Shown piece after piece: positions 1 to 10,782 of a stretch of DNA of 28,220 bases (its first letter is position 1; every line of letters begins with the position of its first letter). The translations under genes and the position numbers were made by a program. Location: the NCBI GenBank assembly GCA_027491435.1, contig JAOZFG010000025.1, positions 1-28,220 on the forward strand, given 5' to 3'. Origin of the DNA: Thermoproteota archaeon. GTDB lineage: Archaea; Korarchaeota; Korarchaeia; Korarchaeales; Korarchaeaceae. Below the pieces are notes generated by a model that did not search any database, was not told where the DNA came from, and worked only from the letters and a program-made list of their open reading frames with translations.

Positions 1-183
1 GGATTTATGGGCTACTCTGCGTACTCATTTCATCACGCTTTCAATCCCCTTTTCGGGATTCAGAGTTCAACGACATTCTGGACGAGCTCATAAGCGAAAA
101 CTTTCAATCCCCTTTTCGGGATTCTAGACGGAATGAAACTCGCCATAGGCTATTATATTCTTTCAATCCCCTTTTCGGGATTC
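1..183 (-). CRISPR. CRISPR array (leader-proximal end; continues off the left edge)
   Basis: Identical 24-bp repeats CTTTCAATCCCCTTTTCGGGATTC at 38-61, 101-124 and 160-183, plus a partial GGATT at 1-5. Unique spacers of 39 bp (62-100), 35 bp (125-159) and ~31-32 bp (6/7-37). On - the repeat reads GAATCCCGAAAAGGGGATTGAAAG, with the archaeal 3' ATTGAAAG handle and an AATCCC/GGGATT stem. Confidence 0.97.
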
Positions 184-468
184 CGACGGTGTATTACCCT
201 TGACTTACTTAAATAGGTTACCTCCACAGTACAATTTTTAACAGCCATTCGCTGCACTCCTATTTGCAGCCACTTTATATGTAGCAGCGAATTACTCACA
301 GAACCTATTATCGAAATACTTCCTTAGTTTATTATCAATATTTTTGAAAGCTCTTAGGTCAGTTGACTAGTTTCACTTAACTAAAAGCACTACTCCGAAT
401 AATACCTCTTGCCCCCGTCTCCCTTTGTAAGCCCCACTCACTACGACGGAGCTGGACGCTTGATCAGA
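184..468 (-). promoter_or_regulatory. CRISPR leader (AT-rich, non-coding); right boundary approximate
   Basis: AT-rich ORF-free stretch on the 5' side of the array in its inferred transcribed orientation, with TATA-like runs (e.g. ctttatat near 272-279). Confidence 0.7.
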
Positions 469-574
469 ATTTCTAATTTTTCTAAATGGTTATGCTTCTA
501 ATTAGAGATAAATTTAACAGATACTCCTGAAGCTTAATGTAGACCAAAGAATAGATGGCTCAAACGAACGTATT

Positions 575-722
575 ATTTCATTATTTCTAAATGACTTCTA
601 CAAGTCAAATTGCCAGTTATGCGCAAAAAGCCACAATTTCATTATTTCTAAATGACTTCTTCTGAGGGGGGTAACATAAGGGCCTTACAGGCCATACTAT
701 TTCATTATTTCTAAATGACTTC
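575..722 (-). CRISPR. Second CRISPR-like mini-array with divergent repeat (3 repeats, 2 spacers)
   Basis: Perfect 24-bp repeats ATTTCATTATTTCTAAATGACTTC at 575-598, 636-659 and 699-722, with unique spacers of 37 and 39 bp. On - it reads GAAGTCATTTAGAAATAATGAAAT (GAA start, AATGAAAT end). A degenerate copy lies at ~469-492. Confidence 0.6.
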
Positions 723-751
723 CGATCCCATAAAGTCTCAACATTCTCTTT

Positions 752-848
752 GCTTACTTGATAAAATCAAGCTTTCTAAATCGACGTTGAGCATCTCCCC
801 CTGGGTTCCCCTAGCCAGGGCTTACTTGATAAAATCGCACTTTCTAAA
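752..848. repeat. Two 29-bp direct repeats GCTTACTTGATAAAATC(AAG/GCA)CTTTCTAAA
   Basis: Copies at 752-780 and 820-848, 26/29 identical, separated by 39 bp. They share the TTTCTAAA core with the 575-722 repeats. Confidence 0.85.
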
Positions 849-1470: not shown

Positions 1471-2241
1471 CTATTTCCCATGTGCGGACCTTTCAGCTTT
1501 CCTGTAACTTATCACTCCAAAACCCTTAGACCTCAACCCCCCTACGTTAACGTACTCTCCCAGCCTCATTAAGGCGTCTACTTTCCTCAGGAAGTCATCT
1601 CTCTCGTAATGAGAGTTGGCGGAGAAGTGAGCCCACCCTACAAATCCCACCTTGAAGTCGCCCTCGTCTTCATACTTCAAAGTCTTTATCTTGAGAGCTG
1701 AAATTACAATTCCCCAACTTTTTAACCAATTATGGAACTCCTCCCTCTCGTCCTCATCCTCCATAGGTCCCAAATACCTGTTCCAGACCCTGTGGAGGTT
1801 TATTAACATCCTATCAGGCAGGGGAACTGGAATGAACACGCCGCCCTTCACCCCTCCGCCGGGCCTGAAGAAAGTGGGGGTCCTGAACTTCACGGAGAAC
1901 TTCCTGACCACATCGCCCCGATATGGCCTGACCTCCTCTACCTCTACCCTGACCACCTCGAAGTCCCCTAGCCTGCTCCTGATTACACCGGAGAGTATGG
2001 CCTCGCTTAAAGCAGAAGTCACCTCTTCAGTGAAGGCCGTTACGTCCAGCACTAGGGCTTCCTCCTCTTTCTTCAGTGGTTTTACAGCGAAATCAGTTTG
2101 CATAGAACCTGATCTCCTAAGCTGGACGATTTGAGGGTTTACTTGCTCCAAGGCGCTTAAGACTATCGAATAGGAGGCAAACCCTTGGAAGCCCCTGGGC
2201 TCGTATCCCTCAGCCACCAAGTACAACCTGAACCTGTGCAC
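1471..2241 (-). CDS. cas6: CRISPR pre-crRNA endoribonuclease Cas6
   Basis: F-x-TPT-x-F motif, LP-x-P...LHRVWN, GFVG, and a C-terminal Gly-rich loop NVGGLRSKGFG. Start placed at GTG 2241 (256 aa, typical size) rather than ATG 2445, because TTTTAAAG lies 21-28 nt upstream. Confidence 0.92.
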   Translation of the reverse strand: MHRFRLYLVAEGYEPRGFQGFASYSIVLSALEQVNPQIVQLRRSGSMQTDFAVKPLKKEEEALVLDVTAFTEEVTSALSEAILSGVIRSRLGDFEVVRVEVEEVRPYRGDVVRKFSVKFRTPTFFRPGGGVKGGVFIPVPLPDRMLINLHRVWNRYLGPMEDEDEREEFHNWLKSWGIVISALKIKTLKYEDEGDFKVGFVGWAHFSANSHYERDDFLRKVDALMRLGEYVNVGGLRSKGFGVISYRKAERSAHGK

Positions 2242-2261
2242 TTGGAAACGTATGCCTTTCC

Positions 2262-2269
2262 CTTTAAAA
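2262..2269 (-). promoter_or_regulatory. Candidate TATA box for a leaderless cas6 transcript
   Basis: TTTTAAAG on - at archaeal TATA distance from GTG 2241. Confidence 0.45.
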
Positions 2270-2453
2270 GGTGAGGTGACCGAAGTTTCGTTTAGACGAG
2301 GCCGGTTGGAGCGATCGGTCCACACTAAAGATACTAGAGGTTCAAGTAGTGAGAGGAACTCTAAACGGTGGGCTTGAAAAATTCCCTTTAAAGCCTGAAG
2401 TTGACCCTCCCTGGCGACCCACCCATTTATTTTTTCCGAGCTCATATAAGGGG

Positions 2454-3953
2454 ATGAACCCGCTGAAATCCTTGCTAAGCGAAGTTAAGCTCTTGGCCCA
2501 CCTGCTTGGCGTTCCGCCAGCCAGGCCACTGCCCAGGGAGGTGAGGGTCTCTAACGTTCCCCCGTCGGTCCACGTCAAGTCCTCCCTCTCGGGAGACGAG
2601 CTGTTGATAAGCGGGGAGCTTGACCTCTCGGACGAACTGCTTCTGAGGAAGGAGGCCTTCTCCCTTTTCATACCTGAGGAGGCCGATGACATACCTCAGG
2701 TTCACGGCATGTCTTGGTTTTACGCCAGGGCCTCTAGGAAAGTCTGGAACAGGTTCAGGGAGAAGCCACCCCCTCCCTTCGAGACCTTCGACCTCTTCGA
2801 CTACCTGGAGCGCCTAGAAGGAGCGCAGGGGTTAAAGGAACTGCTCATGATGGTCAGAGCTGCTGCCATGAGCGGTGAGCTCACCTTTCCCGTTTTCACG
2901 GCCCTGGTTAGGAGGTGCACCATGAAGCCCCACAGGCCCACTAAGTCTCAGCTCGCCATCCTGAAGGAGCTGGCTAAGAGGCCCACAGCCGATATAAAGG
3001 AGCTCTCTTCCAGGACGGGAGTGCCCTACTCCACCCTCTGGAAGGCCCTCAGCAGCCTCAGGGAGGAGGACCTGATATCAGGGCCTGAGAACGTGGACAT
3101 CGGCATGTTAGGCCTGGACACGTACGTGATCTCCTATCCCAACGTTAAGGAGTTCAGGGAGGCCTTCTGGGAGTTCCCCTTCACCTACAACCAGTTGATC
3201 CCCCTGAACGGTGCCAGGGTTCATGCGTTCGTCCTGGCCCCAACAAAGGCCCTGATAGCCCTTTCCAGCCTGGAGGAGTTTGGGATGGAGGTGGGCAGGG
3301 TGACGATGGTGGCCCAGTCTTTCAACCTCAGCTACAGGGACGAGGAAGTGGGCGAGATGTTGAAAAGGGCGTTAACTGAGAGGTACACCTTCAGGAGGAA
3401 CGAGCAAAGGGGGAGCCCCTACCTGAAGCTCAAGGAGGACGACCTAAAAGTCCTTAACCAGATCCTGCTCTACGGGACCACCTCATCGTCCAAGCTGAAG
3501 GCCCTGGGGGTGAAGTCCGCCAAGAGGAGGTTAGCCAAGCTCAGGAACCTGGGGCTAATTAAGAGGTACTACACGGTCGGCTCCCCTCCAGGGACCAGGG
3601 TTCTGGTGGTCAAGGCCTCCTGCAGCGAAACGGAGGTTGGCAGGGTCTTCTCCCTCTTCAGGTCAGCTCCTGAAGTTCAGGTGGCTCACGTCTCGTCCAG
3701 AGAGGAGTTCTGCCTGGCGGTGATACACGCTTACCCTGGAACGGTGGAGCGATTCGTGGCGGCGGCTAAACTCTTCCTGGGCGACAGGCTCAGGTTCGCC
3801 GGCGAGGTATACGACGTGGTCACCTCTTGGACTTTACCAGTTGAGCTTTGGGTTCCTAGAAAGGGGTTCAACTGGGAGGAGCCCCTGGAGGATTTGAAGG
3901 GTAAGCTCGGCCCAATTTCCATGAAGGCTACTGGATTTAGTGATAAGGGGTAA
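2454..3953 (+). CDS. Putative transcriptional regulator: unknown N-terminal domain plus two wHTH/Lrp-AsnC-like modules
   Basis: HTH1 TKSQLAILKEL..IKELSSRTGVPYSTLWKALSSLREEDLI followed by 'VDIGMLGL' (Lrp-like linker). HTH2 LKEDDLKVLNQI..AKRRLAKLRNLGLIKRY. Start at ATG 2454 is inferred (499 aa). Confidence 0.7.
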   Translation: MNPLKSLLSEVKLLAHLLGVPPARPLPREVRVSNVPPSVHVKSSLSGDELLISGELDLSDELLLRKEAFSLFIPEEADDIPQVHGMSWFYARASRKVWNRFREKPPPPFETFDLFDYLERLEGAQGLKELLMMVRAAAMSGELTFPVFTALVRRCTMKPHRPTKSQLAILKELAKRPTADIKELSSRTGVPYSTLWKALSSLREEDLISGPENVDIGMLGLDTYVISYPNVKEFREAFWEFPFTYNQLIPLNGARVHAFVLAPTKALIALSSLEEFGMEVGRVTMVAQSFNLSYRDEEVGEMLKRALTERYTFRRNEQRGSPYLKLKEDDLKVLNQILLYGTTSSSKLKALGVKSAKRRLAKLRNLGLIKRYYTVGSPPGTRVLVVKASCSETEVGRVFSLFRSAPEVQVAHVSSREEFCLAVIHAYPGTVERFVAAAKLFLGDRLRFAGEVYDVVTSWTLPVELWVPRKGFNWEEPLEDLKGKLGPISMKATGFSDKG

Positions 3954-4268: not shown

Positions 4269-5768
4269 CTAGTGGGTCAGCTCGTATATGAGCTGGATCA
4301 CCCTGCCTAGGTGGAGGTAGACGGGAAGCCTCCTCATCAGGGAGCGAACCACCCAGCTCTCCTCGTTGGGGACCAGGGCGTCAACGTCCCTCCCCCTTCT
4401 CCCCCTCGCCCTCGCGTGCACCTTCCTCAAGAGCCCCTTCTCCACCATCTTGTTGGTCAGGTACCTCTTTTTGAGTCGATATTCAGCCCTCTCATCTCTT
4501 AACGACAGGAGCTCGGCGAGCTCCGATACGGTCAGCCCATCCCTGGGAGCCCTGGACCTCAGCATCTGGTAAAGCCTCTCGGGACACCCTCCAAACTCCT
4601 TCTTGCCCTTGATTGAGGCGTCCGCCAGCATGTCCAGGGCTTTATCCGCTCCCTCCATAAGCCAGCACAGGTAGGCTGAGATGGGCTTTAAGGCCTCTGA
4701 TTCGCCCTGAAACTCCTCGTCAAGCAGGCGCTTCACCACGACAAGCCTTAGCACTTCCCTCTCCACGTCGCTCAGCTCTGGTAAGGTCCTAACGCTGACC
4801 TCCCCTCCGAGCCTCCTAACTACTACCTCAAGGGTCAAGGCGTCCCATGGATCCTGGGAGATGGACACCTCCCCGAACCTCCTCCTGTAGCCCTCCCTAA
4901 GGCCCATGGCCTCCACTAGCCCCTTGAAAACCCTGTTAAAGGTAGCGCCCAAGAACTTCCAGAGGGAAGTGAGCACATCCGGGTTCAGATTCACGGCGCC
5001 CAGGTAGGTGGCGTAGGGCCCCTCCAGCTCAAACCAGTTGTCCACCGCCAGCTTTAAAGAGAGGGAGTGATCCACCGCAATCCTTGCAAATCGCCTGAAC
5101 TTCCTCCTGCCGGCCTTGCCCTTCATCCTCACGAAGGAAAGGCCGAGAAGGCCGTCTCCGGATAAGAAGGTAGGGTGTAATCCCCTTATCAGCTTTGGGA
5201 CAGGGCCGACAGCCTTCATGGGTGACGTAATTCGGGCTAACTCCTCTCTAGTAGAGTTTAACGCCAGCTCCGGGCCCTCAAGTGGGATGGCTGGGGACCT
5301 TATGGATATGAACACCTCTGAGAAGTAGTTGGATGACATCCTGCCCTCTGTGGGCCTGTTAGCGTCTAGAACCTCCTTCAAGGATCTAAAGAGGGCTCTC
5401 CACTCCTCAGCGAACTCTGGGAGGGAGAAATCCCCTGAGGGCACTGCCGAGATCCTGACCCTGTGGACCTGACATAAGCCGAACCCCAGCCTCCTGACCT
5501 CGAACCTGAGGGGCCTGGTGGTCTTGAAGGTTCTGGCTCCGTTGATGACCTCCCTAACCCGCTCTAGCTCGTCCTGCGTAAGCCCTCTTGAGCTGGACAG
5601 GACCCTGAACCCCTCACAAAGCTTTCCCCATCCCGGAAAACCCTTGACCATCTCCCTGCAAATTTTGGCCACGTCCTCAGGTTTTTTAAGGGGTTGTCCC
5701 TTTAGGAGGGGCTCTTTAAGCAGGTAGGCCCTGACTATGGACATGGATAACCCTATCACGGGCATCAT
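4269..5768 (-). CDS. Uncharacterised 499-aa protein with C-terminal wHTH-like region, coupled to cas3
   Basis: Long ORF with host-like codon use. ATGA overlap with the cas3 stop and GAGGTG SD. C-terminal GLTVSELAELL...KMVEKGLL...ARGRRGR resembles an HTH plus basic wing. Confidence 0.8.
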   Translation of the reverse strand: MMPVIGLSMSIVRAYLLKEPLLKGQPLKKPEDVAKICREMVKGFPGWGKLCEGFRVLSSSRGLTQDELERVREVINGARTFKTTRPLRFEVRRLGFGLCQVHRVRISAVPSGDFSLPEFAEEWRALFRSLKEVLDANRPTEGRMSSNYFSEVFISIRSPAIPLEGPELALNSTREELARITSPMKAVGPVPKLIRGLHPTFLSGDGLLGLSFVRMKGKAGRRKFRRFARIAVDHSLSLKLAVDNWFELEGPYATYLGAVNLNPDVLTSLWKFLGATFNRVFKGLVEAMGLREGYRRRFGEVSISQDPWDALTLEVVVRRLGGEVSVRTLPELSDVEREVLRLVVVKRLLDEEFQGESEALKPISAYLCWLMEGADKALDMLADASIKGKKEFGGCPERLYQMLRSRAPRDGLTVSELAELLSLRDERAEYRLKKRYLTNKMVEKGLLRKVHARARGRRGRDVDALVPNEESWVVRSLMRRLPVYLHLGRVIQLIYELTH

Positions 5769-7792
5769 CGCACCTCGTGGAGGCCCAGCTCAGGGGAGTA
5801 GGCCACCCTGCCGCCTACCACGATGAAGGGGATCCCCTCCTCCCAGGCGTGCCCCCTCTCCAGGTACCCCTTAAGCTTGAGGAAGGGCACAGGGACCAGG
5901 GACTCCTTCATCCTCGCGTATATCCTCCTTCTTTCAGCGTAACCGGTGGCTTCCCTGTACTTCTGGTGGAGGGAGCGAACCTCCTGGACCTTGCTCTCGG
6001 GAACAGCTAATACGCTGGCTTCTCCCCTCAGGTGCCTGGCCAGCTGCTCTAGATCCGTGTCGACCCTGAAGAACTGGTCCTCGAAGATAGGCCTGAGGAG
6101 CCTTTCAGCCTGGATCAGCTCTGAGCTCATTATTTCCTCCACGTACTCATCGTACTCCCTTATCATTTCCAGGTAAGCGCCCTCACCTTCCCTCAAACTC
6201 TCGTGGTGTTTGTGAATCACTTGTCTGGAGTACTTAAACTCCAGCTCCGAGTAGGGGCGATGGTCCTTCACCTCAATTACGTAGACGTTGGGCTCCCTGG
6301 GGCTCACCTCCCCGTACCTGTTAACCCTGCCGGCCCTCTGTATCAAGGCCGGCACCGGGGCCATGTCCGTCACCAGGACGTCGAAGCTAACGTCTAGGGA
6401 GACTTCAGCAATCTGCGTTGCCACCAGAACCTTGGCGGCATCTATTTCTCCCTCCTTCCTCGCCCTGTCCCCTACGGTGAACCTGCTGTGAAGCAACACC
6501 TTTCCTGGAACCTCCAGCTTCCTGTAAAAGTCTATGGCCCTGTCCACCCTGTTGAGGATCACTAGGACCCTCCTCCCCCGGTTGAGTTGCTCCCTTACAA
6601 CATCTTCTCCCTCCCCTTCGTCGACGAAGGCGATGATGTGCCTCCTCTTCCTGGAGTACTCGTCAGACAGGTCGACCTCCTTGTAAGGGATTCCAGCCTC
6701 ACTGAGCGCCCTCACCAGCACCTTCTTGTAAGCCTTTATTGGGGTGGCGGTCATTAGCACGAACTCCATCCCGTAATCGGGGTAGTTAGCTATCGCCGTG
6801 GCCAGGGCCCCTATCATCCTGGCCGGCAGGAGGTGGTACTCGTCTATGACGAGCAGGGATCTCCTAAGCTGGAACCTCCTCATGTGGTACCTGTTGGCCC
6901 TCAGCATTGAGAGGAGCACCTGGTCCACCGTCGTGACGTTAACCTTGGGTATGAAGAGCCTGTAGAAGTCCAGAACCCTGTCGTCCTCGTCTAGAAGCCC
7001 CTTCCTGAGGAGGTCAACGTCGGCGAAGTAGAAGTACTCGCCCACCTCGTTAAACTTAAGGGACTCCACCAGCTTCCTCACTGCTGTGATGGTAGGGAGT
7101 GAGTAGAAGAGCTTCACCGGCTTTTCCTGGACCGCCTTGAGCAGGCCGACCAGGGTTTTACCCCAACCTGTGGGGGCAGTTAGGATTAGGCTTCCACGCC
7201 CCCTAGCAATCTCCTCCTGCCTCTTCAGCCTTTCCTCATCTACCTCACTTAGAAAGGAGGTGACTATCTCCTCTAGGGGCGGCCAGTCGCTTTCCAGGAT
7301 TTCCCTAACCCTGTCCACCATCCAGTTCGCCGAGGCGAAGTCGGCCAGCTTGAATATCCCGAAGGCGTCGGCGCACCTGACCGGCTCCCTCAGGGCCCCG
7401 GCTATCCTCAGGTATTCCTTGTAACTGGGGGGTTTTAGGGAGGAGTGGTGCTTCCTCACCAGGTAAATTAGGAGGTCGACCTGCTCCCCGGTTAGAGGCC
7501 TTAGAAGGGGCCTAACCTCGTCAAGCAAGCGGGCCCCCTCCCTGGAGTGGCTGAACCTGGCTCCAAACCCCCACTTAGGGTGGAGCTTCCCCAGGTCGTG
7601 CAGTTCGCAGAGGCACTTGACCAGGGGCTTGTGTGAGAGGCCGAACACGTCCAGGGCAAAGCTGGCCAGCTCCCAGCACTCTTGGACGTGCCTGGAGAGG
7701 GGCTTCCCTGGATGAGACTCCTTCTCGTCAGGCGAAGCCAGCTTATACCCCTTCTCGATGAGGGCCTTAACCACTTCCTTTAAAGAGCACAT
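5765..7792 (-). CDS. cas3: Cas3, fused N-terminal HD nuclease + SF2 helicase
   Basis: HD motifs RH..LHDLGK..SHS..KHHS..LADFAS. Helicase motifs APTGWGKT, IDEYH, MTATP, HSRF, ATQIAEVSLD, QRAGRVNR. Start at ATG 7792 overlaps the upstream stop (TGATG); 675 aa. Confidence 0.97.
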   Translation of the reverse strand: MCSLKEVVKALIEKGYKLASPDEKESHPGKPLSRHVQECWELASFALDVFGLSHKPLVKCLCELHDLGKLHPKWGFGARFSHSREGARLLDEVRPLLRPLTGEQVDLLIYLVRKHHSSLKPPSYKEYLRIAGALREPVRCADAFGIFKLADFASANWMVDRVREILESDWPPLEEIVTSFLSEVDEERLKRQEEIARGRGSLILTAPTGWGKTLVGLLKAVQEKPVKLFYSLPTITAVRKLVESLKFNEVGEYFYFADVDLLRKGLLDEDDRVLDFYRLFIPKVNVTTVDQVLLSMLRANRYHMRRFQLRRSLLVIDEYHLLPARMIGALATAIANYPDYGMEFVLMTATPIKAYKKVLVRALSEAGIPYKEVDLSDEYSRKRRHIIAFVDEGEGEDVVREQLNRGRRVLVILNRVDRAIDFYRKLEVPGKVLLHSRFTVGDRARKEGEIDAAKVLVATQIAEVSLDVSFDVLVTDMAPVPALIQRAGRVNRYGEVSPREPNVYVIEVKDHRPYSELEFKYSRQVIHKHHESLREGEGAYLEMIREYDEYVEEIMSSELIQAERLLRPIFEDQFFRVDTDLEQLARHLRGEASVLAVPESKVQEVRSLHQKYREATGYAERRRIYARMKESLVPVPFLKLKGYLERGHAWEEGIPFIVVGGRVAYSPELGLHEVR

Positions 7793-8847
7793 CAAGCCAC
7801 CTCCAACCACATCACGAAGCGAAGCGAGGGCTTCAAATTGAACCTGGAGCAAAGCCCTACGTACTTATCGACGATGCGCCTTAAAGGCTCCCAGAGCAAA
7901 ATCCCTCTGTCCACAAGCCCCCTGGCTAAAACCTCCAGTTCAGAGTAGATCAACTCGACGTCTTCGTTAGCCTTCCTTCCAACATTGGACAGGCCGGCCA
8001 GGGAGTTCCAGAGCCCCTTCAAGGCCCTTTCCCTCTCGGGATTCTCAAGCCAGCGGGACACGAAGGCGTTTAGCTGAGGGAAGGTAAAAGTGTTGTACCT
8101 CTCCTTGTCCTTAGGGGTGAAGTAGATCATGCCGGAGGAGCCCTTGAGCATCTCTACAGTCTCATCCCTGAAGTTTTTGTGGACCCACATGAGCAGCCTG
8201 ACCAGAGTTACAAAGGGCTGCTGAAGCTCCCACCTAGAGGCGCCCAAGTCCTTGGCTTCCAGGTTGGTCTTGCCAAGCTCCGCCAGCCTGAGCCTCAGGT
8301 ACCTCTGGAAGGGCCCCTCAAAGTAGACGGCCATGTTACTCCCTACCCCTATGGACCTAACCAAGTTGAGGGCCAGCCTGACCTTATCCAGGAGGGTGTA
8401 GCTCTCCCCGTAAAGGTAGAGGTTCTCCACCTCGCTCCTGCCGACTGTGCCTGGGACTATGGTGGGCCTCAGGTCGTCACCCTTCTCCAGGGTCCTCTGG
8501 ACGGTTAGGTCCACCACCACCTCAACTATCCCATCCAACACCTCCTTGGCGATTCTCAGGAGGCTTAGCGGGTCCCCCTCTACCATGTTAACTAGCTTGG
8601 ACAGCTTTTTCCCCAGCCGATCGTTGACCTCCCTGGTGAGGTTCCCGTAGTCCATTACCTTGGCCAGGATTGGGTGGTCCACCGAAACTACGTCCTTCAA
8701 CGAGAAGAGCCCCTTCCCCTTTCTCCCCACCCTGGGGGGCATGCCCTCCTTTACTGCCTCCTTCACGATGCTGGCCAGCTCCTCTGGTCCCACCTTAATG
8801 TTCAAAATGCTGAACAGCTCCTCCCTCAGCTCGTCAACCTCCTTCAC
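7792..8847 (-). CDS. Putative Cascade large subunit (Cas8a-like, divergent)
   Basis: 351 aa, located between cas5 and cas3, with a GAGGTGA SD. Assigned mainly by position and size; no diagnostic motif recognised with certainty. Confidence 0.65.
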   Translation of the reverse strand: MKEVDELREELFSILNIKVGPEELASIVKEAVKEGMPPRVGRKGKGLFSLKDVVSVDHPILAKVMDYGNLTREVNDRLGKKLSKLVNMVEGDPLSLLRIAKEVLDGIVEVVVDLTVQRTLEKGDDLRPTIVPGTVGRSEVENLYLYGESYTLLDKVRLALNLVRSIGVGSNMAVYFEGPFQRYLRLRLAELGKTNLEAKDLGASRWELQQPFVTLVRLLMWVHKNFRDETVEMLKGSSGMIYFTPKDKERYNTFTFPQLNAFVSRWLENPERERALKGLWNSLAGLSNVGRKANEDVELIYSELEVLARGLVDRGILLWEPLRRIVDKYVGLCSRFNLKPSLRFVMWLEVA

Positions 8848-8851
8848 ACCA

Positions 8852-9556
8852 TCACCTCAAGAACCTCCAGGACTCGTGAACGAAAACCGTTAACGAGCCG
8901 TCGGTGACAGCCGGCCTTCTAACGGTTTTCAGGGTCAAGTTGTAGGAGAAGGCGTACTTGCTCACCTCCCCGTCGTTGACCTCATCTACCCTGAGCTCCC
9001 CCTTCCCCTCCCAACCCTCAACCTCGGAGAGCCTGCAGTACCCAACGCCCCTATCAGTTTCAACGTACCTGGCCCTTCTAACGCTTTTAACGTCCAGGAG
9101 AAAGTTGTAGTCGTTGCCCCCGAAGACCTCGTACTGGAACTCCATCTTTTGGAGCCTGCTTGTCAGCTCTTCCACCACCTCCCCAGTTGAGGAGACGGCG
9201 AACACGTAGGAGGGCCTGTAGAGGAGGACGCTTCTCTTGGGAGTCCTCACGAAGTCCCTCCAACCCTTCACCTTGATTATGGTCATGGTCTCGCTTATCA
9301 GGCCCTCGTAGCCCAGCATGGCCGCTCCCGTCATAACGCCGTTTTTACAGGCGAAGTCTCGCAGGTTCCTTCTCTCCACTCCCAGGACGGCCCCTATGAA
9401 CCCGAGGACTGAAGAAGGGAGGGGGATCAGGTAGGTGTCCCTGTAGAGCTTGATGAGGTGCTTCCTGAACTGGGCGGTCTCGAATTCAACCTGGAAGATG
9501 ATCGCTTCCTCATTGGGAGCGTAGCAGGTAGGACGTAACAGCTTCGATAACGTCAT
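8852..9556 (-). CDS. cas5: CRISPR-associated Cas5
   Basis: N-terminal AQFRK...TYLIPLPSSVLGFIGAVLG signature, TP..R..L.RP.Y, and FGG loop. Start uncertain. Confidence 0.92.
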   Translation of the reverse strand: MTLSKLLRPTCYAPNEEAIIFQVEFETAQFRKHLIKLYRDTYLIPLPSSVLGFIGAVLGVERRNLRDFACKNGVMTGAAMLGYEGLISETMTIIKVKGWRDFVRTPKRSVLLYRPSYVFAVSSTGEVVEELTSRLQKMEFQYEVFGGNDYNFLLDVKSVRRARYVETDRGVGYCRLSEVEGWEGKGELRVDEVNDGEVSKYAFSYNLTLKTVRRPAVTDGSLTVFVHESWRFLR

Positions 9557-10457
9557 CCAGGGAATCCCCCTTCAGCTCCAACTCCTTGTCGCCCATCTTG
9601 TAGAGCCTGCCCCCCCTATAATCTATTATGAAGCCCTTATCCCAGGAGTAGAGGTCCAAAGCCCTGTTCACAGCGTCCAGATCCAAGTTGAGGTCTTCGT
9701 CCATCCTCAAAACGTTTGGGGTTGGTATGAAGCTCTCGCTAAGCAGGACTATGGCGTAGTGGTACTCCGGGATGCTCTCAGCCTCCGACCCCCTTGGGAA
9801 GGACCATCCCTCCCTTAGGAGGATCTCCAGCAGGGCCCTGAGCCTAGCAGCCCTCTCCTCTTCCTTGAGCTCGTAGTACCCGTCCTTCTTACTCACAAGC
9901 TCGGAGTAGTCCTTTATCCTCTGCAGCACCTTCTTGGGCAGCTCGTCCTCCCTGAACCTGCCGACCCTCTCGTTTACGATCACGTGCATCCCCCCCAGCC
10001 ACTTGGCCGTCTCTATTTCGAAGGGCACCGGATTAGCTTCAGGGGCCTCGTCGCTTATGTCAGTCCTCGGGAAGCGGCCGGCGAACTCAACGCTTATCTC
10101 CGTGTGGTGTAACGCTATCAAGGGGGAAACCTTGACTGGACCGCTCCTGCTGGGCTGAACCTCCCCCTTGCCCTTCTCTGGAGCCAGGTAGCCGAAAAGG
10201 TCGTCGTCCACGTAGATTATGGGGTCCCCCACGTCGGTCAGCTGGCCCTTCTGGGTGATTAGCGGGTCCACCCTGAACCCCTTCTCAGCTAGCCTCTCCC
10301 TTATCCCCCTCCTGATGCACCTGGGGGAGACGAAGGCCCTGACCTCCCTGTTCCAGGTTACGACCTTCTTGATGGGTATCCTGACGCCCACCCCTGAGTC
10401 GGCGTTAACGTTACCGGTAACACCTAAAACTAAGGAGATGAAAGCCCTCCTAGGCAT
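9510..10457 (-). CDS. cas7: Cas7 backbone subunit (DevR/Csa2/Cst2-like)
   Basis: N-x-D..IKK, FVSPRCIRRGIRE, DDDLFGYL, R-x-GPVKVSP motifs; 315 aa. Confidence 0.93.
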   Translation of the reverse strand: MPRRAFISLVLGVTGNVNADSGVGVRIPIKKVVTWNREVRAFVSPRCIRRGIRERLAEKGFRVDPLITQKGQLTDVGDPIIYVDDDLFGYLAPEKGKGEVQPSRSGPVKVSPLIALHHTEISVEFAGRFPRTDISDEAPEANPVPFEIETAKWLGGMHVIVNERVGRFREDELPKKVLQRIKDYSELVSKKDGYYELKEEERAARLRALLEILLREGWSFPRGSEAESIPEYHYAIVLLSESFIPTPNVLRMDEDLNLDLDAVNRALDLYSWDKGFIIDYRGGRLYKMGDKELELKGDSLDDVIEAVTSYLLRSQ

Positions 10458-10458
10458 A

Positions 10459-10782
10459 TCACCCCTCTCCCGAGAATATGGCCTCGTAGAGCCCCGAGAG
10501 TATGGCCGTGCTGTACCTGTAGAACTCGTCGACCTTCCAGGGCCTCTCCTCCTTTATTTCCTCGGGTATTGGGATCTTCTTGGGACAATCTGTCATGACA
10601 GAGACTATCTGATCCACCAGGGCCCTCCTGAACCTGTCAGGCGTTAGCTCGGATCTAAGGGAGAGTATGAAGCTCCTAAGCTGGTTCTTGACAGAGTCCT
10701 CCCTCCCGGGGCTCTTGGACTGGAGGCACTCCAACATGGCCTTACCGGCCTTGAAGGCCCACTTGTAAAGGCTGTCGGGCAG
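10459..10782 (-). CDS. Putative Cascade small subunit (Cas11/Csa5-like)
   Basis: Small helical protein first in the operon, ending AILSGL. The frame is open upstream of ATG 10737 (LPDSLYKWAFKAGKA-M), so the start is proposed at CTG 10782 behind GGTGGT. Confidence 0.65.
   Translation of the reverse strand: MPDSLYKWAFKAGKAMLECLQSKSPGREDSVKNQLRSFILSLRSELTPDRFRRALVDQIVSVMTDCPKKIPIPEEIKEERPWKVDEFYRYSTAILSGLYEAIFSGEG

Follow-up and report, generated by a model that had tools for sequence, protein, structure and literature searches.

A Divergent CRISPR Mini-Array With a Host-Derived Spacer Beside a Korarchaeal CRISPR Leader: A Probable Natural Case of Off-Target Spacer Integration

Introduction

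The window considered here is a stretch of 28,220 nucleotides (nt), the first bases of contig C15 in the draft genome of a korarchaeal archaeon (1.64 Mb in 43 contigs, 99.5% complete, with an estimated contamination of 2.5%), and its coordinates are those of the contig. The contig begins within a CRISPR array, with the leader on the right side of the array, and between this leader and the first gene, cas6, lie 1.2 kb without long reading frames. Adjoining the far end of the leader stands a second and much smaller array with a different repeat, called the mini-array below, which is the subject of this work together with a further repeat pair to its right (Table 1). For comparison, 42 other genomes of the phylum were used, 20 of them from the same genus; in GTDB the whole phylum comprises only 43 species. 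An earlier note on this DNA had recognized in the mini-array a unit that resembles CRISPR in repeat length, spacer size, polarity and junction, and had proposed that it is either a cassette of regulatory, non-immune guides or an array for a second Cas6. A unit built by CRISPR machinery is indeed what the evidence collected below points to, whereas the two proposed functions find no support.

Table 1. Coordinates, strand and character of the features of the window.
Feature	Coordinates	Strand	Remarks
Canonical CRISPR array	38-183	-	truncated by the contig start; repeats at 38-61, 101-124 and 160-183
Canonical spacers in the window	1-37, 62-100, 125-159
Canonical leader	184-574	-	ends with TCG at the first repeat
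Degenerate fourth copy of the mini-array repeat core	469-488	-	ATTTCTAATTTTTCTAAATG; without the leader-side GAAGT end
Mini-array repeat R1	575-598	-	most distant from the pseudo-leader
Spacer S1	599-635	-	37 nt, 41% GC
Mini-array repeat R2	636-659	-
Spacer S_xer	660-698	-	39 nt; leader-proximal; copy of a host recombinase gene
Mini-array repeat R3	699-722	-	adjoins the pseudo-leader; junction TCG/GAA as at the canonical leader-repeat junction
Linker separating the mini-array from the D3 pair	723-751	-	29 nt; serves as the "leader-proximal" DNA of the mini-array (pseudo-leader)
Repeat D3a	752-780		29 nt; holds the palindrome CTTGATAAAATCAAG and ends with TTTCTAAA
Insert S_lys	781-819		39 nt, spacer-sized; copy of host lysZ
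Repeat D3b	820-848		identical to D3a at 26 of 29 positions, the three differences being adjacent
cas6	1471-2445	-	first gene to the right of the non-coding stretch
Csa3-like regulator gene	2349-3953	+	next after cas6
Type I effector genes Cas3, Cas5 and Cas7	4269 to ~10737		follow the Csa3-like regulator gene

Anatomy and Uniqueness of the Mini-Array

The mini-array consists of three identical 24-nt repeats (ATTTCATTATTTCTAAATGACTTC on the + strand, GAAGTCATTTAGAAATAATGAAAT on the - strand) that enclose two unique spacers of 37 and 39 nt, as the earlier note had reported, and its repeat length, spacer size and polarity are, as stated there, those of the main array, in which the repeat also measures 24 nt (GAATCCCGAAAAGGGGATTGAAAG on the - strand) and the spacers 35-40 nt. 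A recount gave the same degree of identity between the two repeats as before, namely 11 of 24 positions (1-3, 6, 11, 17 and 19-23), the matches being clustered at positions 1-3 and 19-23. The hairpin of the main repeat had been described as absent from the mini-array, and the folding energies agree: the canonical repeat folds as a 6-bp hairpin of -8.7 kcal/mol, and none of 200 shuffled sequences folds as well, as against -1.7 kcal/mol for the mini-array repeat, which is not significant (28 of 200 shuffles are equally good). The GC content of the mini-array repeat, 25%, is like that of the surrounding intergenic DNA.

Allowing up to three mismatches, the 24-mer of the mini-array occurs in the 1.64-Mb genome only at its own three sites, which is far beyond chance, and at up to five substitutions a single further match, with five mismatches, is added on contig C26. 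The repeat is present in none of the 42 other phylum genomes, which speaks against conservation of the locus across related genomes. Exact scans of viral contigs and genome contigs returned no copy of the 24-mer; among metagenome contigs there is one exact, single-copy match (L038, 1850-1873), which lies in a coding part of an unrelated, AT-rich contig of phage-like character and is taken to be due to chance. In the relative G015, the one Cas6-to-array region that is readable holds no mini-array unit, and six other Cas6 loci of relatives contain neither an array nor a mini-array, most of them stopping at a contig end. Within the window, a degenerate fourth copy of the repeat core (Table 1) reaches a local score of 13, for which the shuffle null (500 shuffles) has a 95th percentile of 11 and a maximum of 13. 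The linker that takes the place of a leader is not significantly similar to the true leader, and a duplicated leader upstream of the mini-array was ruled out because the best local score of that DNA against the true leader, 26, lies within the shuffle range (maximum 29).

The Leader-Side Junction and Its Look-Alike

Both arrays of C15 have CGA (+ strand) at their leader side, at 184-186 and 723-725, whereas the internal C15 repeats are flanked by AGA and TAG; this observation of the earlier note was confirmed for the contig. A second array with the canonical repeat lies on contig C4 (10202-10538), beside Csa1-Cas1-Cas2-Cas4, and the leader between 187 and 261 of the window is identical to the leader start found there; the leader segment 228-257 also has 93% identity to the leader of the same-genus genome G002. 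The segment C4:10202-10617 (L042), which comprises the second array and this same leader start, has an extra C at the leader junction; the contig stops 75 nt into the leader, and C4 and C15 may represent two arrays or strain variants of one.

The junction TCG/GAA and the far-end TGAAA (positions 19-23) are common to the mini-array and the true first repeat. Position 24 differs between the mini-array repeat and the canonical repeat of C15 (G vs. T), and it is a position that also varies along the C4 array (G, G, T, T, A, A). Combined as TCGGAA-N15-TGAAA and sought on both strands of the genome, these shared elements occur at exactly two sites, the true junction at C15:186 and the mini-array junction at C15:725, 539 bp apart, where base composition would lead one to expect, by estimate, about one site per genome by chance. 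In Sulfolobus solfataricus, integration cannot do without leader positions -4 to -1 and positions 1-4 of the repeat; at -2 Cas1 has a preference for C, at +1 for G or C; repeat positions from 13 onward are of little importance, and specific integration needs at least 400 bp of leader (PMC5815122). Both the true junction and the junction of the mini-array fit these Cas1 preferences.

Host Origin of Two Ectopic Spacers

When positions 187-1470 of the window were searched against the organism's own genome, two of the three ectopic spacers of the window, i.e., those outside the canonical array, proved to be self-derived, as against none of the eight canonical spacers compared (seven complete ones and one at the contig start). 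None of these eight matches its own genome beyond 16 nt, and two leader-proximal ones have no exact match in viral contigs. A comparison of the 1.4-kb array of the relative G015 with the genus genomes gave matches that run nearly all from repeat to repeat, and no protospacer.

The leader-proximal spacer of the mini-array, S_xer, equals C40:35796-35835 minus one base (39/40), a segment inside a gene for a XerA-type tyrosine recombinase, in its conserved LLRGGNIRALQAILGH box. The missing base would break the reading frame of the recombinase, so the change sits in the spacer. The gene is the sole XerA-type match in the genome, it has orthologues in 17 of the 20 other genus genomes (48-52% identity, single-copy-like), and it stands among housekeeping genes, all of which marks it as a core gene of the chromosome; a mobile-element origin of the target was ruled out on the same grounds. 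Read as the repeat is oriented (- strand), the protospacer has CCC at -3 to -1, and a transcript of S_xer from the - strand would be antisense to the recombinase messenger RNA (mRNA). To the right of the mini-array, the insert of the D3 pair, S_lys, equals C31:24601-24639 with one difference (38/39), a synonymous third-position change from ACT to ACC (Thr). Its target is lysZ, the gene of [LysW]-aminoadipate/glutamate kinase (score 310 bits, cut-off 194), and next to the protospacer stands CCC or CCA, depending on the orientation in which it is read. S_xer and S_lys have opposite sense relative to their respective mRNAs. A CCN 5' of the strand that matches the CRISPR RNA (crRNA) is the motif described for Pyrococcus furiosus (PMC5737086) and for S. 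solfataricus and Thermoproteus tenax (PMC4005679); the frequency of the dinucleotide CC in the genome studied here is 0.083.

A comparison of the two mini-array spacers with the host genome and with viral sequence, which the earlier note had suggested, thus yielded a host gene for S_xer but nothing for S1, which is without a match in its own genome, in phage and plasmid records, in viral contigs and in the 42 other phylum genomes. A scan for transfer RNA (tRNA) found none, so the self matches of the ectopic spacers are not tRNA or att fragments.

A Spacer-Sized Insertion Elsewhere in the Genome

A whole-genome scan for direct-repeat pairs at array-like spacing revealed, outside the window, an exact 24-nt duplication that flanks a 38-nt insert (C40:34169-34192 and 34231-34254; L071/L044). 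It is the only isolated pair of such 24 + 38-nt geometry genome-wide, the rest being arrays, known units, tRNA genes and coding repeats; pairs on C10, C22, C25, C27, C33, C36 and C43 were set aside as tRNA genes or coding repeats. Neither the organism's genome nor viral contigs nor the 42 other phylum genomes contain a match to the 38-nt insert. The scar interrupts the 3' part of a gene for an AAA_14/DUF4143 ATPase, in which the duplicated 24 nt encode ELRIKEAT. Four orthologues (G011, G008, G002 and G020; 70-76% identity) are uninterrupted, running from CRELR..EA.. to ..PLWKWL, and a fifth homologue, in G016 (52% identity), is also uninterrupted across the site. The similarity of the scarred ATPase to its close orthologues ends at residue 149-150 of 168, and the native C-terminus (VVTWDEEQTLLERCKIKVVPIWKWL) is taken up again, in a different frame, past the second 24-nt copy and an insertion that totals 62 nt. 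A spacer inserted into DNA outside CRISPR with a stagger of 24 bp would be expected to leave this footprint, and on this reading of the sequence the process has occurred in this lineage outside any array.

From the recombinase protospacer the scar is 1542 bp away; the chance that one of the two protospacers falls so near is estimated at about 0.004. Around sites nicked in integration, P. furiosus shows enriched spacer uptake (PMC5737086), and a speculative physical coupling of ectopic integration with spacer sampling would explain the proximity on C40; we note this proximity and build nothing on it. Two side observations belong to the same region. The ATPase gene (C40:34164-35386) is also split by a frame change into an AAA_14 and a DUF4143 open reading frame (ORF), and it may already have been a pseudogene. 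The 10-mer ATGCTTCTAA has two genome copies only, at 492-501 of the window and at C40:34259-34268, at distances of 74 nt to the mini-array and 4 nt to the scar; the chance of this is roughly 0.08, and it may be coincidence.

Probable Off-Target Integration and Its Alternatives

Taken together, these observations lead us to regard the mini-array as probably a natural "neo-CRISPR", a locus that arose by off-target Cas1-Cas2 integration and has grown by two spacers. The sequence itself shows how the unit is built, its self matches with the motifs beside them, a site that is unique, and the independent 24 + 38-nt scar on C40; the enzyme responsible, the order of events and the absence of interference we infer as follows. 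The integrase, Cas1-Cas2 with Csa1 and Cas4, would have been drawn to the long leader and would have used a look-alike junction in the leader-distal, AT-rich DNA, about 540 bp upstream of the true junction. Each insertion would have duplicated 24 bp, the length of the true repeat, and two insertions of this kind give three identical repeat copies. The new leader-side copy would have been used again for the second insertion; since this insertion took place at the leader side, the recombinase spacer would be the younger of the two. One spacer would have been excised from the host recombinase gene next to CCN, and a third event of this kind, though a less regular one, probably produced the 29-nt pair around the lysZ fragment. 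The RNA of the mini-array is probably neither matured nor loaded, nor used in interference, since its repeat has no hairpin and departs from the true repeat at 13 of the 24 bases, and this would explain why self spacers are kept in the ectopic units and are absent from the canonical arrays. In P. furiosus, most new spacers are host-derived and the cells bearing them are lost (PMC5737086); self-derived fractions of 2/3 and 0/8 are what would be expected if uptake is mostly self and purging acts only where the spacers are active.

The lengths involved are consistent with this course of events. The duplicated unit has the length of the cognate repeat in the mini-array and in the C40 scar (24 nt each), the 29 nt of the D3 pair deviating, and the inserts, at 37, 39, 39 and 38 nt, all fall within the canonical range of 35-40 nt. 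The adaptation genes for integration are present as two complete Csa1-Cas1-Cas2-Cas4 modules, one on C4 and one on C43. Several points weigh on the other side. With its 29 nt and its three adjacent mismatches, the D3 pair fits a 24-nt ruler poorly. No empty-site allele of the mini-array was found, the intergenic region not being conserved in the genomes searched. An archaeon can tolerate self-targeting (PMC5435918), so surviving self spacers are no proof of inactivity. The CCN motif is taken from other archaea, and no protospacer of a canonical spacer was found that would fix the protospacer-adjacent motif (PAM) here. The genome is a draft with 2.5% contamination, and spacer and target could come from slightly different (sister) strains; the synonymous difference in lysZ fits sister strains as well as it fits later drift. 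The degenerate core copy, 83 nt beyond R1, could be the trace of an array that is older and in decay, or of a motif that recurs locally, and TTTCTAAA is enriched in the region, with 6 of its 44 genome copies between 479 and 848 and all on one strand, so the ancestral DNA may have held such a motif, or the age of the array may be greater than appears.

In a different explanation, the mini-array would belong to a true second CRISPR repeat family, served by another Cas6 or by a second type I locus, and would hold its self spacers by chance. The genome does have three different Cas6 genes (at 1471-2445 of the window, on C16 and on C43), two adaptation modules and two Cmr2/Cas10 genes, the array of the C43 locus is missing from the assembly, and the degenerate copy at 469-488 looks like the terminal repeat, now decayed, of an older array. 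A repeat family should have other members, however, and none was met: no copy at up to three mismatches exists elsewhere in the genome or in the 42 phylum genomes, the Cas6 of the C16 type is found in nearly all 20 same-genus genomes, from which the repeat is absent, the exact scans of viral and genome contigs were empty, and the lone metagenome match is unrelated coding DNA. The repeat, moreover, with its 25% GC and its lack of a significant fold, resembles the nearby intergenic DNA. We consider a second repeat family unlikely, and the suggestion of an array for a second Cas6 finds no support, as no other array with this repeat was met in the sequences searched, in spite of the three Cas6 genes.

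The other function proposed in the earlier note, that of a Cre- or Racr-type regulator, corresponds to a non-immune guide cassette whose crRNA-like RNAs would steer Cascade or Cmr to xerA and lysZ for tuning, and we judge it quite improbable. Its position next to cas genes and a Csa3-like regulator would suit such a role, as would the antisense orientation of the - strand S_xer RNA to the recombinase mRNA and the single change in each spacer relative to its target, which might weaken cleavage; mini-arrays occur in about 10% of archaeal I-A loci (PMC10120712). In its fullest form, and at the same low probability, the cassette would be a working self-directed one, in which RNAs tagged with AAUGAAAU in Cascade or Cmr bind the recombinase gene or mRNA and lysZ DNA; it would then tune chromosome resolution or growth, the single deletion or mismatch keeping the binding below the killing threshold. 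Guides of the Cre type, however, pair partially, with promoters of toxin or cas genes, whereas the matches seen here are full-length and lie within two unrelated housekeeping coding regions, the two self fragments are of opposite sense to their mRNAs, and a scan of the three spacers over the 28-kb window for CCN-flanked sites with at least 9 of 10 seed bases found none for any spacer, near cas promoters or elsewhere. The absence from the 42 genomes and the rarity of mini-arrays with three or more repeats (12 cases; PMC10120712) also stand against it. It is very improbable, finally, that the unit is an array of leader-associated protein-binding motifs, or the product of a duplication process independent of Cas1-Cas2, in spite of the strong single-strand enrichment of TTTCTAAA and of the palindrome TTCTAATTAGAG, which occurs only at 496 and 1107, on either side of the region. 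What lies between the copies is host-gene fragments of spacer length beside CCN, and the duplication has the length of the repeat at both the mini-array and the C40 scar. A leader motif of this sort, which the earlier note had named as another way of accounting for the unit, would be expected to recur upstream of arrays, and it does not do so in the relatives' loci scanned: TTTCTAAA and TTTAGAAA are absent from seven of them, three of which match the leader (L008, L011 and L032), and R-like or D3-like sequence appears in none of 11.

Relation to Known Systems

The formation of neo-CRISPR loci by off-target Cas1-Cas2 integration has been described for the type I-E system of Escherichia coli, with circumstantial natural cases in two further species (Nivala, Shipman and Church, 2018), and Cas1-Cas2 of P. 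furiosus uses, in vitro, off-target sites that share features of the repeat (PMC6698737). The mini-array is likely to be a further natural case of this known process. As in the loci described, a stretch that is no repeat has been duplicated, at the length of the true repeat, on either side of an insert of spacer size, and the site shares the end features of the repeat. Unlike the E. coli examples reported, the mini-array is natural and archaeal, follows a 24-nt ruler and has its place in the wider leader region of a real array; its site would have been used twice, which makes it a growing array, and at least one of its spacers comes from the host chromosome, beside a PAM-like motif.

The mini-array also resembles the CreA/CreR mini-arrays and CRISPR repeat-like elements (PMC10120712), in that a short array with divergent repeats stands in a cas locus outside the main array. 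The CreA/CreR units described mostly consist of two repeats, of which one is degraded, with a spacer that is partly complementary to a promoter, whereas the mini-array has three identical repeats, full-length matches to coding regions and no promoter match. Self-targeting spacers and autoimmunity have been reviewed (PMC6990116), and in P. furiosus spacers are likewise taken from the host chromosome next to CCN (PMC5737086); in contrast to the self-targeting spacers known from these sources, those considered here stand in an ectopic and not in a canonical array. Divergent repeats are found in T. tenax as well, in arrays whose repeat differs from the active one by 7 exchanges, compared with 13 here, and which are thought to be unprocessed by the Cas6 proteins (PMC4005679). 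Those, as reported, are full arrays of an established repeat family, whereas the repeat of the mini-array is unique to one place.

CRISPR-Cas Complement and Other Features of the Genome

The effector genes at 4269-10737 score best as I-B-like (Cas3b, Cas5b and Cas7b), with Cas3 as a fused HD-helicase, whereas the adaptation modules elsewhere in the genome contain Csa1, a hallmark of subtype I-A. Three ORFs of the effector operon (499, 351 and 92 aa) have no family match. Csa1, an archaeal best match for the XerA-type recombinase and the LysW-type kinase all point to an archaeon as the source of the genome. Contig C43 carries a type I locus within its first 9000 nt (C43:1-9000; L072), with Cas6, Csa1, Cas1, Cas2, Cas4 and a split Cas3'' and Cas3'; it begins 617 nt from the contig start, and its own array is not assembled. 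The first 320 nt of this contig hold two decayed repeat-like pieces, AATCCCGAAC...TGAAAC and GGGATTGAAAT, from which it follows that the C15 array may continue into C43. Another Cas6 gene stands alone (C16:12557-13375; L043, 3558-4376), amid housekeeping genes for adenylate kinase, IMP dehydrogenase and AdoMet decarboxylase, and weak matches of this C16 type, mostly in a frame of 272 aa, occur in most genus genomes irrespective of arrays. On C25 (5482-5592), one Cmr2/Cas10 frame contains an exact 39-nt duplication, in frame, with 33 nt between the copies and a period of 72.

In the non-coding DNA between the mini-array and cas6 lies a perfect 20-nt palindrome with the centre CGAGCATATGCTCG (985-1004). 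The palindrome-containing 12-mer TTCTAATTAGAG has only two copies in the genome, at 496-507 and 1107-1118, which flank the mini-array on both sides; it is a candidate regulator site and could serve, e.g., the nearby Csa3-like protein. No Rfam family reaches its gathering score in the window.

Conclusion

What is unusual about the mini-array, compared with the process already known, is its place beside a real leader, its growth to two spacers, and the presence of spacers from core host genes with PAM-like flanks. If the proposed off-target integration is true, the locus is a natural record of the birth of a new CRISPR array, and not a new regulator: a junction look-alike that exists by chance was hit, duplicated by the 24-bp ruler, and hit again. 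The new repeat can probably not feed interference; its spacers would then be free of purifying selection, and the ectopic spacers would thus show the unfiltered intake of the integrase, host DNA included. For annotators of archaeal genomes the case carries a caution, as a divergent mini-array beside cas genes is not necessarily a regulator. With the scar that breaks the ATPase gene on C40, it would also mean that off-target integration carries a real mutational cost in wild archaea.

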